Shown: positions 9,001 to 12,000 of the stretch, one piece after another | How the letters are laid out: the number at the start of each line of letters is the position of its first letter | How positions within the stretch are numbered: position 1 is the stretch's first letter | IMG/VR virus record: IMGVR_UViG_646311924_000013 | Strand: one strand, 5' to 3' | DNA length: 38,725 bases | Source of the DNA: a virus | Lineage: Duplodnaviria > Heunggongvirae > Uroviricota > Caudoviricetes | Program-made: the position numbers

Positions 9001-12000
9001 GTGAATCCCCCTGTGCGGAGGGGCAATCAGCAACCAGGTATATGGGGTAATCGCGGATTCAGGTGCTGGTACTGAATTCACCGGGAGGCACCCGGCACCA
9101 TGCAAGAAAAAGAATGTGCATGCAAACATGCCCCTCTCCGGAGGGGCTTTTTTATGGGTAAAAAAATGCCCGAATGGGTTCGGGCAATAGCATGAGATAC
9201 TGATATTGTTGTGTTGTTATCGTGTGGATTTTAACCAGGGTTTATCAGGCTGCGCAACTGCGTGGCCTTTTTTCATTTCTTGGGCTGTAGTCCCCGTGTG
9301 TCATTCAGGCTTCCGGACTACAGCCCACTCCATATCTGATTTAATACACTATCCCGGCCGGGAGGAATAATGACATTTAAACATTATGATGTTGTCAGGG
9401 CGGCGTCGCCGTCAGACCTTGCTGATGCACTTGCGCAAAAAATTCGTGAAGGATGGCAACCATATGGTGGGCCGTTTTCTTCGTATACGGATGATGGCGC
9501 AGCACTTATTCAGGCGATTGTCGCAGAAGGTGATGTGAGCACACCTGTTGTGGTGAAGCCGACAGGTGGAGAAGGTGCAGTAATCAGCGCCACCAGCGAC
9601 CCCGGGTATTACTTTGTTGTGGTTCTGGCAGGGCAGTCAAACAGCATGGCATATGGTGAAGGCCTTCCGCTGCCGGAGACATATGACCGTCCGGACCCGC
9701 GCATTAAGCAGCTGGCGCGTCGCAGTACGGTGACACCGGGCGGTGTCGCCTGTAAATATAACGACATCATTCCGGCGGACCATTGTCTGCATGATGTGCA
9801 GGACATGAGCCGCCTTAACCATCCGAAAGCGGACCTGTCAAAGGGGCAGTACGGAACCGTGGGGCAGGGGCTGCATATCGCCAAAAAACTGCTGCCGTTT
9901 ATACCGGCGAATGCGGGCATTCTGCTGGTTCCGTGCTGTCGTGGTGGTTCAGCGTTCACCACCGGAGCTGATGGCACATACAGTGACGCGAGTGGTGCCT
10001 CGGAGAATTCAACCCGCTGGGGTGTGGACAAGCCGCTGTATAAGGACCTTATCGGTCGAACAAAAGCAGCACTGAAGAAGAATCCGAAAAATGTGCTGTT
10101 TGCCGTGGTGTGGATGCAGGGGGAATTTGATTTTGGCGGTACGCCGGCAAATCACGCAGCACAGTTTGGTGCGCAGGTTGATAAATTCCGTGCAGACCTG
10201 GCGGATATGGCAGGTCAGTGCGTCGGTGGCTCTGCTGACGGTGTTCCCTGGATATGCGGGGACACGACGTATTTCTGGAAGCAGAAGAACGAATCCTCGT
10301 ACCAGACGGTGTACGGCAGCTACAAAAACAAAACGGAAAAGAATATCCATTTCGTACCGTTCATGACGGATGAGAATGGGGTGAATGTGCCGACGAACAA
10401 ACCGGAAGAAGACCCGGACATTCCGGGTATCGGATATTACGGTTCGAAATGGCGTGACAGCTCAGCCACCTGGACGTCACAGGACAGGGCGAGCCATTTC
10501 AGCGCCTGGGCACGCCGTGGGATTATTTCCGACCGTCTGGCAACGGCGATTTTGCGCCATGCGGGAAGAGTGGCGCTAAACGCGGGGGCATCATCGACAG
10601 TATCAGAGGTGCGCCCGTCATCGCCTTCCGGTGCAGAAGCCACAGGCGTCACAACACTGCTCTCTTACCTTGCCAGCGAGTCAGAGGGAAGCCTGAAAGT
10701 ACAGGGATGGTCAGCCAGTGGCGGCAGGGCAGAAGTGGTCAGCGATGCGGAGGGAACCGGAGGTAAGGCAGTGAAGCTGACCAAGGAAGCCGGTAAAAGC
10801 AGCTGGGTGCTGGAGTACGCCGCGGGCAACGGTGCGGCTCTGTTACAGAAAGGGGGGCAGATTCGCTGCCGCTTTAAGGTTTCGGGAGCGCTGGCTGCGA
10901 ACCAGTATGTTATGGCGTTTTACTGGCCGGTATCTTCACTGCCACAGGGCGTTGCCCTGACCGGAGACGGGGGGAATAACCTGCTGGCAGCGTTCTACAT
11001 CCAGACAGATGCAAAAGACCTGAATGTGATGTACCACAATGCGAAAGTGGCGACAAACAACCTGAAACTGGGAACCTTTGGCGCATTTGATAACGAATGG
11101 CATACGCTGGCCTTCCGCTTTGCCGGGAATAACAGCCTTCAGGTGACGCCGGTTATTGATGGTCAGGATGGCACACCGTTCACGCTGACGCAGTCACCGG
11201 TCAGTGCATTTGCGGCGGATAAACTGCATGTGACAGACATTACCAAAGGTGCGACTTACCCGGTGCTGATTGACAGCATTGCGGTGGAAGTGAACAACAC
11301 AGACACTGCGGCATGATAAAAAAAACCGCCAGCGACAGGAATGGACGCTGGCGGTGGTAATACCTATGGAGAAAAAATAAAGGAACGATACTTTCGTGCT
11401 CTGGTTTTTTAAATGAAAACAGTTCTTATTGTCAACAATAACGGAAAGAAATTATGACATTTCTGAACCAGTTAATGCTGTACTTCTGTACGGTGGTCTG
11501 TGTGCTGTATCTCCTTTCGGGTGGGTACAGGGCCATGCGTGACTTCTGGCGCAGACAGATTGACAAAAGGGCCGCTGAGAAAATCAGCGCCAGTCAGTCA
11601 GCCGGAAGCAAACCCGAAGAGCCGCTCATTTAGCGGCAACTTTCTTAATCACATCTTTCGACGAGAAAATCCCATGTCAGAAATTACATCCCTGGTCACT
11701 GCTGAGGCAGTGAAGGAAGTCCTGCGCTCTGAAGAAGTCCTGAGTGCACTGAAACAAAAACTTCGCCATAACCTGGAAGCGCGTCTTGATGCAGAAGTGG
11801 ATGCCATTCTGGATGAACTGCTGGGCGCACCGGCAGCTCCGGAGCCGGAAGGTATCGCGGGTGAGGGGAGTGCTTCAGATAGCGGTGACCCCACACCGGA
11901 CAGCGACATGATGATGTAAGCATGCGTCAGGGACCATCGGTGTGTGCCGGTGGTCTTTTTTATTGTTGTGAGCTTCCGGATTGCGGGAGACGGGGTATGA

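Follow-up and report, generated by a model that had tools for sequence, protein, structure and literature searches.

Results

The gap between the sialate esterase and DUF1378 genes

This analysis concerns a 137-nt intergenic gap (11317-11453) in the IMG/VR virus record IMGVR_UViG_646311924_000013 (Caudoviricetes), a stretch of 38,725 nucleotides that is referred to as the window. The gap separates a nanS-p-like sialate esterase gene from a DUF1378 gene, and its minus strand carries a perfect -35 box, an anti-Shine-Dalgarno motif and an intrinsic terminator. The site is probably a self-contained, unannotated small RNA (sRNA) gene of about 83 nt, which is related to the Hfq-binding sRNA Esr41, lies between the genes and is convergent with nanS-p. 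All coordinates are window positions and the element is read on the minus strand. Its anatomy, outlined below, as well as its homology, synteny, conservation pattern and complementarity are direct observations.

9370..11316, plus strand: nanS-p-like sialate esterase open reading frame (ORF; SASA/DUF6645), convergent with the sRNA element
11318..11400, minus strand: predicted sRNA of 83 nt (Rfam Esr41 match, covariance model R1 described below, 30-nt spacing rule, fold)
11318..11355, minus strand: intrinsic terminator and probable Hfq-binding 3' end (10-bp stem, 11-nt loop, U8 at 11325-11318)
11356..11364, minus strand: small hairpin GGU-AUU-ACC between seed and terminator (minimum free energy fold)
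11366..11375, minus strand: putative seed UUUUCUCCAU, invariant, with the anti-Shine-Dalgarno core UUCUCCAU at 11366-11373
11376..11400, minus strand: variable, allele-specific 5' part GCACGAAAGUAUCGUUCCUUUA with a short weak stem-loop (AAAG / CUUU) of uncertain register, unlike Esr41
11406..11412, minus strand: weak A-rich -10 region, TAAAAA (18-nt spacer) or TTAAAA (17-nt spacer)
11435..11430, minus strand: -35 box, perfect TTGACA by direct reading, 76 nt from the hairpin
11454..11633, plus strand: DUF1378 gene, divergent from the sRNA promoter, start codon 19 nt beyond the -35 box

A preliminary description had placed an A8 run and a 9-bp perfect hairpin right after the nanS-p stop, and both were found there by direct reading (11318-11354): the stop codon TGA occupies 11314-11316, the A8 run follows at 11318-11325, and the stem arms CCGCCAGCG (11326-11334) and CGCTGGCGG (11346-11354) form nine perfect pairs around an 11-nt loop. 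With the pair A11325-T11355 the stem extends to 10 bp (11355-11346 with 11334-11325), and these 9 to 10 bp, with U8 behind them, hold eight G-C pairs, as is typical of an intrinsic terminator. In the plus-strand direction the hairpin leads into TGGTAATACC without any U-tract, so that, as had been proposed, the structure would terminate minus-strand transcripts alone. Three sites of the 38.7-kb window combine a perfect stem of 8 bp or more with at least seven T in the next eight positions; all of them are on the minus strand, and by the same stem and T-run criteria not a single terminator was found for the plus-strand late operon anywhere in the window. All three strong minus-strand terminators belong to known or candidate sRNA loci, namely the present element, an AgvB copy and a PasB-like sequence. 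The site exceeds chance expectation.

For the 85-nt minus-strand RNA a folding energy of -24.9 kcal/mol (z = -4.7) was calculated, which none of 200 shuffled sequences matched, and a counterpart of the small hairpin, GGGGUAUUCCC, was found in the Rfam Esr41 alignment. The 5' end of the predicted sRNA is given within +/-2 nt, its 3' end lies inside the U-run, and its equivalent in O157 Sakai (NC_002695.2) is located at ~2922084..2922166 on the plus strand. Since the predicted sRNA lacks any ATG, GTG or TTG, it is non-coding and the synthesis of a small protein from it is ruled out. Previously, an antisense RNA of 80-90 nt had been suggested. Length and strand of that proposal agree with all comparative evidence for the predicted 83-nt RNA; its designation as antisense does not, since the RNA (11400..11318) lies wholly inside the gap, overlaps no coding sequence on the opposite strand and complements only an untranslated spacer of the late transcript. 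The element is better described as an intergenic, probably trans-acting sRNA of the Esr41 family.

Putative promoter region

To the right of the hairpin the minus strand carries the announced perfect TTGACA (6/6 positions), and the -10 region proved as poor as had been stated. The best candidate, TAAAAA (11411..11406), matches 4/6 positions and has A at -11, and neither of the two candidates has T at -7. TTGACA occurs eight times on both strands of the whole window; from this count, the chance of finding it in the ~20-nt interval that yields an RNA of 75-95 nt is estimated at ~0.2%.

Transcription is expected to start 30 nt past a -35 box. The annotated 5' ends of Esr41 and of PasA and PasC, two sRNAs from the corresponding slot of other prophages, each lie exactly 30 nt past the last base of a perfect TTGACA, and EcOnc52 also has a TTGACA box at the same distance. 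Applied to the window, this rule places +1 at 11400 (A) and results in an 83-nt RNA. TTGACA is kept in loci without DUF1378 (E2348/69 PP2 and SpLE1); consequently, the conservation of the box is not due to the DUF1378 leader. The -35 box lies inside an inverted repeat, TTATTG-N4-CAATAA (11424-11439). A Fur box at this repeat was considered and dropped, with ~10/19 matching positions by eye and arms that are not kept in other alleles.

According to the preliminary description, the hairpin might only terminate convergent read-through. In this case it would be a terminator or insulator that blocks stray antisense transcription into nanS-p or stabilises an RNA end, and the TTGACA would be coincidental or part of the DUF1378 leader. 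The poor -10 region and the missing promoter call of a consensus scanner would fit such a role, as would the location of the TTGACA complement within the DUF1378 5' leader, 19 nt from the ATG, and the lack of an entry for this variant in the EcOnc list and the tables from cross-linking, ligation and sequencing of hybrids (CLASH). However, all annotated genes to the right of the element are on the plus strand, so that no obvious minus-strand transcript needs this terminator. Furthermore, TTGACA is found at the same 30-nt distance at Esr41, PasA and PasC, also without DUF1378, the invariant 8-nt motif between promoter and hairpin would be useless for a bare terminator, and the other two comparable terminators of the window sit at the AgvB match and the PasB-like sequence. 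With no minus-strand gene to the right and with promoter, seed and terminator conserved as a module, we consider a mere terminator very unlikely and favour the sRNA gene.

Homology to Esr41

In a permissive Rfam scan of window positions 11000-12000, the Esr41 model RF02676 aligned over its full length (1-74 of 74) to 11394..11318 on the minus strand with 30.9 bits and E = 0.0011. For the reverse comparison, ten window-type variants with 74-100% identity, derived from E. coli genomes and one Shiga toxin (Stx) 2a phage, were aligned (A1), and the covariance model R1 was made from A1 with Esr41 excluded and searched with filters off over 61 kb. R1 recovered Esr41 over its exact 74-nt extent (L006, 1048-1121; 26.7 bits, E = 0.0013). 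PasC was marginal (13 bits, E = 1.4), yet located at the exact PasC coordinates, and PasA was not found by R1 in these 61 kb.

A pattern scan with one genome per species returned, among the matches listed, chance matches in GC-rich genomes. An ordinary Esr41 accounts for the Shigella flexneri match, and the only one of the matches listed that passes R1 is L095 (1390-1462, plus strand, contig CAZIID010000007.1 of a Saccharibacteria metagenome-assembled genome), which reached 32.5 bits but only z = 2.0 as the control in the module comparison described below, and is judged a chance match. It possesses TTCTCCAT, a CCGCCGG hairpin and U9 and has nothing else in common with the family. Evidently, an anti-Shine-Dalgarno motif next to a GC-rich terminator can mimic a weak covariance-model match. 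As this score made mimicry a real question, the full modules were compared by the Smith-Waterman algorithm with dinucleotide shuffles. The window and Esr41 gave z = 12.9, a value not reached by any of 1000 shuffles, and 11375..11314 is identical to the 3' two-thirds of Esr41 in 49 of 63 columns (78%). From these comparisons, the 3' two-thirds of the element are regarded as homologous to Esr41, at a score below the Rfam membership threshold.

Esr41 (EcOnc14; RF02676) is an Hfq-binding sRNA of enterohaemorrhagic E. coli (EHEC) O157, encoded on SpLE1 / O-islands 43 and 48. It has in common with the element the perfect TTGACA, the spacer of ~18 nt, an A/T-rich -10 region and a +1 position 30 nt past the -35 box, furthermore UUUUCUCCAU in identical form and a small GG-UAUU-CC hairpin, and finally the CCGCC-GC / GC-GGCG terminator with a U7-8 tail followed by ATCA. 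In contrast, the 5' third is unrelated and the element is ~9 nt longer (83 vs 74 nt), its -10 region is weaker than that of Esr41 (TATATA/TTATAT), and the sequence beside the seed is CAUAGG instead of CAUGGGG. The locations also differ: the element lies in the late region of lambdoid/Stx prophages, whereas Esr41 lies on SpLE1 near iha and ter genes.

Distribution and conservation

Over 11250-11700, the window shows 100% identity to the stretch separating ECs2972 (nanS-p) from ECs2971 in Sp15, the Stx1 prophage of O157 Sakai, and likewise to many other EHEC prophages. The element, taken as a 161-bp region, was found in 977 of 5426 complete E. coli genomes, at 2194 places and with up to seven places per genome; among the matches listed it lies between the esterase and DUF1378 genes. 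Moreover, the element is present in 305 phage records, mostly of Stx2a-, Stx1a- and Stx2c-converting phages and including VT2-Sakai and Stx2a_WGPS6. The copy on the Stx2 phage of Sakai (VT2-Sakai/Sp5) is 96.9% identical. In the genome and phage records inspected, including those annotated by RefSeq/PGAP (Prokaryotic Genome Annotation Pipeline), no RNA is annotated for it.

From IMG/VR, 80 loci were retrieved by pattern, 74 of which score 67-108 bits with R1 and represent 31 distinct sequences (A2). The variants are 74-100% identical, and the -35 box, the TTTCATTTAAAA -10 region, UUCUCCAU and the stem base CCGCCAG/CUGGCGG are invariant, with the -35 box being TTGACA in E. coli and TTGACT in phi191-type phages. 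No change of the core UUCUCCAU occurs among the 31 distinct viral-contig sequences, the genome variants and Esr41. The surroundings of +1, the 5' body and the loop vary. In E. coli O18 (L013, NZ_CP007275.1), the equivalent of 11335-11345 carries the loop GGCAGGAATGGA instead of the TCCATTCCTGCC of sister alleles, its exact reverse complement, on an unchanged stem; the hairpin has been flipped by recombination between its arms. As the stem is kept in spite of the flip, the loop sequence appears unimportant.

The syntenic slot of PasA, PasC and EcOnc51/52

By sequence the closest relative of the element is Esr41; by position, the closest relatives are PasA, PasC and EcOnc51/52. According to Pearl Mizrahi et al. 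(PMC8550237, Table S6), PasA is transcribed from the minus strand of NC_011601.1 from 743499 to 743415, with a minor 3' end at 743264, and PasC extends from 1290909 to 1290832 of the same genome. In each case the sRNA gene occupies the interval from a sialate esterase gene to its neighbour and is encoded on the opposite strand. Both RNAs were confirmed by Northern blot and by RNA interaction by ligation and sequencing (RIL-seq), and both are Hfq-dependent; EcOnc51 and EcOnc52 were named as their EHEC homologues (PMC8550237). The latter correspond to Hfq peaks in cross-linking and analysis of cDNA (CRAC) data (PMC4104026, Table S2).

The PasA and PasC loci of E2348/69 and the loci of Sakai Sp4 and Sp12 each have TTGACA, a body of 65-85 nt and, directly at the esterase stop, a terminator of the form GCCAGCG...CGCUGGC-U7. 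In E2348/69 the minor 3' end mapped for PasA (743264) falls on the second, esterase-proximal terminator, which indicates that a terminator in this position beside the esterase stop works in vivo. Tandem modules occupy the gap between esterase and holin genes in E2348/69 PP2 (L001, 2265-2535) and in Sakai Sp12 (L005, 1000-1200); the PasA-type module lies upstream and the EcOnc51/52-type module beside the esterase gene, and the 3' end of the minor 236-nt form of PasA coincides with the terminator of the second module.

With PasA, PasC and EcOnc51/52 the element shares the slot between esterase and lysis genes, the strand convergent with the esterase, a similar size (65-85 nt), the TTGACA 30 nt before the 5' end, the terminator abutting the esterase stop and the 3' stem-loop with poly-U. 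Body and seed are unrelated, only the terminator and the TTGACA spacing being common. The reported PasA seed, GCCAGCACCU, overlaps the PasA terminator stem, and the neighbours differ as well: the element is next to DUF1378 and DUF826 instead of directly next to the holin gene. The pairwise identities of such short module segments are unreliable and were used qualitatively only. Since the same slot is occupied by PasA, PasC or EcOnc51/52 in other prophages, the element represents the Esr41 type among the alleles of a prophage sRNA cassette that is exchangeable. An identity with HnrS (EcOnc10-12) was rejected, as this is a 66-nt RNA from a different late-region locus.

A survey of Pas RNAs by Zhu et al., based on blastn and cmscan, found matches in only 43 phage genomes, compared with 305 phage records for the present element. 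In their 2026 preprint, Zhu, Shabalina and Storz describe frequent cmscan 'Esr41' matches near PasD and infer that PasA and PasC were lost from most PasD-bearing prophages. Our data suggest that in these prophages the slot is filled by the Esr41-type allele instead.

Seed and predicted targets

Esr41 represses chuA, cirA and bfr by direct pairing, as demonstrated by compensatory mutations (PMC5286369), and its site of repression on chuA is the ribosome-binding site (PMC9002310). In Sakai, chuA and cirA carry the identical 11-nt motif CCUCAUGGAGA across their Shine-Dalgarno sequences:

chuA leader, L020, ~11580-11590, minus strand: CCUCAUGGAGA
cirA leader, L023, ~5893-5903, minus strand: CCUCAUGGAGA

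This motif is exactly complementary to the UCUCCAU(G) that is invariant in the element, and its identity in both leaders could explain how a single seed controls both genes. It is thus the unvarying part of the RNA that is predicted to pair with the validated Esr41 targets. For the seed region of the window, pairing was predicted at -14.1 kcal/mol with chuA (0/300 shuffles as good) and at -17.2 kcal/mol with cirA (4/300), compared with the stronger predicted values of -20.2 and -25.2 kcal/mol for Esr41. In the phi191-type variant, the match to the chuA ribosome-binding site is perfect over 12 nt. Pairing with bfr is at shuffle level, so that bfr is unsupported as a target of the window allele. 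The weaker predicted pairing and the loss of bfr pairing relative to Esr41 follow from CAUAGG in place of CAUGGGG beside the seed. Of the core-genome RNAs, the iron-sparing RyhB has a target set that overlaps that of Esr41 (chuA, cirA, bfr; PMC5286369); it is not homologous, is Fur-regulated and activates cirA instead of repressing it.

From these observations we infer transcription, Hfq dependence and targets of the element as follows. A sigma-70-type promoter (-35 at 11435..11430, -10 at ~11411..11406) would start transcription near 11400, and the hairpin with its U8 tail (11355..11318) would end it, resulting in a non-coding RNA of ~83 nt with a GC-rich stem and a U-tail as expected of a typical Hfq-binding 3' end. 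In analogy to Esr41, the invariant UUCUCCAU, being single-stranded, would bind to Shine-Dalgarno regions, primarily to CCUCAUGGAGA in chuA and cirA, and thereby block translation in lysogens. The haem receptor is encoded by chuA, and the receptor for catecholate siderophores and colicins Ia/Ib by cirA.

Alternatively, the RNA or a read-through form of it reaching into nanS-p might act mainly in cis, not on host mRNAs, by pairing with the late-operon mRNA; it would thereby control the processing or expression of the esterase or lysis genes or interfere with late transcription. The late transcript necessarily carries a perfect complement of the whole sRNA, the minor 236-nt form of PasA crosses the gap to the terminator beside the esterase stop, and convergent sRNA genes downstream of PR' are a recurrent phage arrangement (Tree et al.). 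Yet the 83-nt form overlaps neither a coding sequence nor a ribosome-binding site, and little read-through is to be expected at the strong U8 terminator. Inside the RNA, conservation is highest in a short anti-Shine-Dalgarno seed matching the validated trans targets of Esr41 rather than in a long antisense interface, and PasA, PasC and Esr41 all have many trans targets. A mainly cis-acting function therefore seems unlikely to us, even though a cis role and a trans role of the element would be compatible with each other.

Expression records and assessment of the probable sRNA gene

Several observations weigh against an expressed sRNA of Esr41 type. The score of 30.9 bits compares with an Rfam gathering score of 102, and the scan at the gathering threshold gave no Esr41 match at the element. 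Similarity to Esr41 extends only from seed to terminator with an unrelated 5' body, and the promoter taken alone is not significantly similar to that of Esr41 (z = 0.5 for the window, 2.5 for the L009 type). The -10 region is poor, the conserved T at -7 being absent, and the consensus scanner, which reports the terminator, calls no promoter at the element; as it also misses the promoters of the verified sRNAs Esr41 and PasA, its silence in the window says little. The predicted pairing with bfr is no better than that of shuffled sequences, and an anti-Shine-Dalgarno seed can pair with many ribosome-binding sites, which makes target prediction non-specific. No informative covariation was detected in A1, which was derived by BLAST, or in A2 with its 31 distinct viral-contig variants; the stem base never varies, which in A2 is partly forced by the search pattern. 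The structure consequently rests on thermodynamics and homology only, the family being young and recombining, so that covariation cannot help.

With respect to expression, the EcOnc list of Hfq peaks has no entry for the Sakai Sp15 or Sp5 copies. As this list is restricted to peaks more than 100 nt from a genomic feature and the RNA lies within a 137-nt gap, its absence from the list is weak evidence. The CLASH tables likewise have no entry at the coordinates of the element, no report naming or characterising this allele was found in the searchable literature, the nearest mention being that in the preprint of Zhu, Shabalina and Storz, and the flanking locus tags yielded no RNA report. The kind of element is well known, i.e. 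a prophage-borne Hfq-type sRNA opposite the late operon, and it is ordinary in mechanism.

The same records bear on the possibility that the element is a decaying or silent copy, that is, a true sRNA homologue whose weak -10 leaves the allele essentially unexpressed while it hitch-hikes in the late region. The lack of T at -7, compared with the better -10 of Esr41, would be consistent with this, as would the absence from the EcOnc list, while EcOnc51/52 from the same slot were detected. However, promoter, seed and terminator are kept in alleles that are only ~74% identical elsewhere, which argues for purifying selection, the element is retained in the 305 phage records, and the equally poor -10 of PasA is accompanied by abundant expression (base mean 3879). 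A silent copy is hence hardly probable in our view, and the functional sRNA gene remains the preferred explanation.

Genomic context and further sRNA loci of the window

Taken over its whole length, the window corresponds to a lambdoid prophage of the O111 type. Its gene order is RusA, Q, a DNA methyltransferase gene at the position of stx in Sp15, tRNA, STnc100/AgvB, the esterase gene, the present element, DUF1378, DUF826, holin, IS1203, lysozyme and terminase. Further features are listed below.

7717-8775, plus strand: DNA methyltransferase gene (352 aa), between Q and the block of tRNA, sRNA and esterase genes
8967-9159, plus strand: STnc100 (144.5 bits), PasD-related according to Zhu et al.
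9161-9222, minus strand: perfect AgvB copy (96.5 bits), 2.1 kb left of the element
12768-12884 and 1-72, plus strand: ALIL pseudoknot matches (IS3-family, IS1203/IS629)
30418-30491, minus strand: PasB-like sRNA candidate, 62 of 78 aligned columns identical to E2348/69 PasB, with an 8-bp stem and U7

In Sakai Sp15, the region immediately preceding this esterase gene is taken up by stx1AB; within the ~10 kb inspected around the element of the window, no stx gene is annotated. STnc100 and AgvB form a convergent sRNA pair upstream of the esterase gene. AgvB and AsxR (Tree et al. 2014) are Hfq-binding anti-sRNAs in the same prophages as those carrying this kind of element; like it, they are short and are encoded downstream of PR'/Q in the 'moron' region, on the strand opposite to the late operon. 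Unlike the element, they are located beyond the other end of the esterase gene and act as sponges mimicking mRNA targets of GcvB and FnrS, and there is no sequence similarity. The PasB-like candidate, which was first seen as a weak R1 match and is absent from Rfam, is flanked by a tail-assembly-like ORF (29732..30412, plus strand) and a gpJ-like ORF (30659..34135, plus strand), the same context as for PasB. In total, the window holds at least four sRNA-type loci, i.e. STnc100, AgvB, the present element and the PasB-like sequence. One of the two IS3-family insertion sequence (IS) elements splits the lysis cassette between holin and lysozyme genes, and the prophage may be lysis-defective through this insertion.

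Discussion

The element is widespread on Stx phages, is unannotated and can be tested with existing public datasets. It falls below the Rfam threshold, and the Esr41 family model may be too narrow. It is quite possible, if somewhat short of probable, that most Stx phages carry an expressed, unnamed Esr41 paralogue which represses chuA and cirA in lysogens, and that the junction between the esterase and lysis genes is a site for exchangeable sRNA cassettes. If so, both Stx prophages of O157 Sakai (Stx1 and Stx2) would be among the carriers, as would Stx2a phages from other lineages, and the phage-borne redundancy to Esr41 could mask the phenotypes of esr41 deletions. The locus would be a clear example of modular sRNA evolution, in which promoter spacing and terminator are kept and PasA, PasC/EcOnc51-52 and Esr41 types of the body, which bears the seed, replace one another. 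Prophages said to have 'lost' PasA and PasC would in fact carry the Esr41-type allele, and expression of the element would revise the recent inference of such a loss in PasD-bearing prophages.

Furthermore, if the element is expressed, several copies of the Esr41 seed would exist in EHEC, for Sakai on SpLE1 and on at least Sp15 and the Stx2 prophage (VT2-Sakai/Sp5), and these copies would matter for the interpretation of esr41 deletion phenotypes and of CLASH or RIL-seq reads mapping to several loci. Stx-converting phages would then bring to their hosts, besides the toxin, a regulator of iron uptake and colicin sensitivity.

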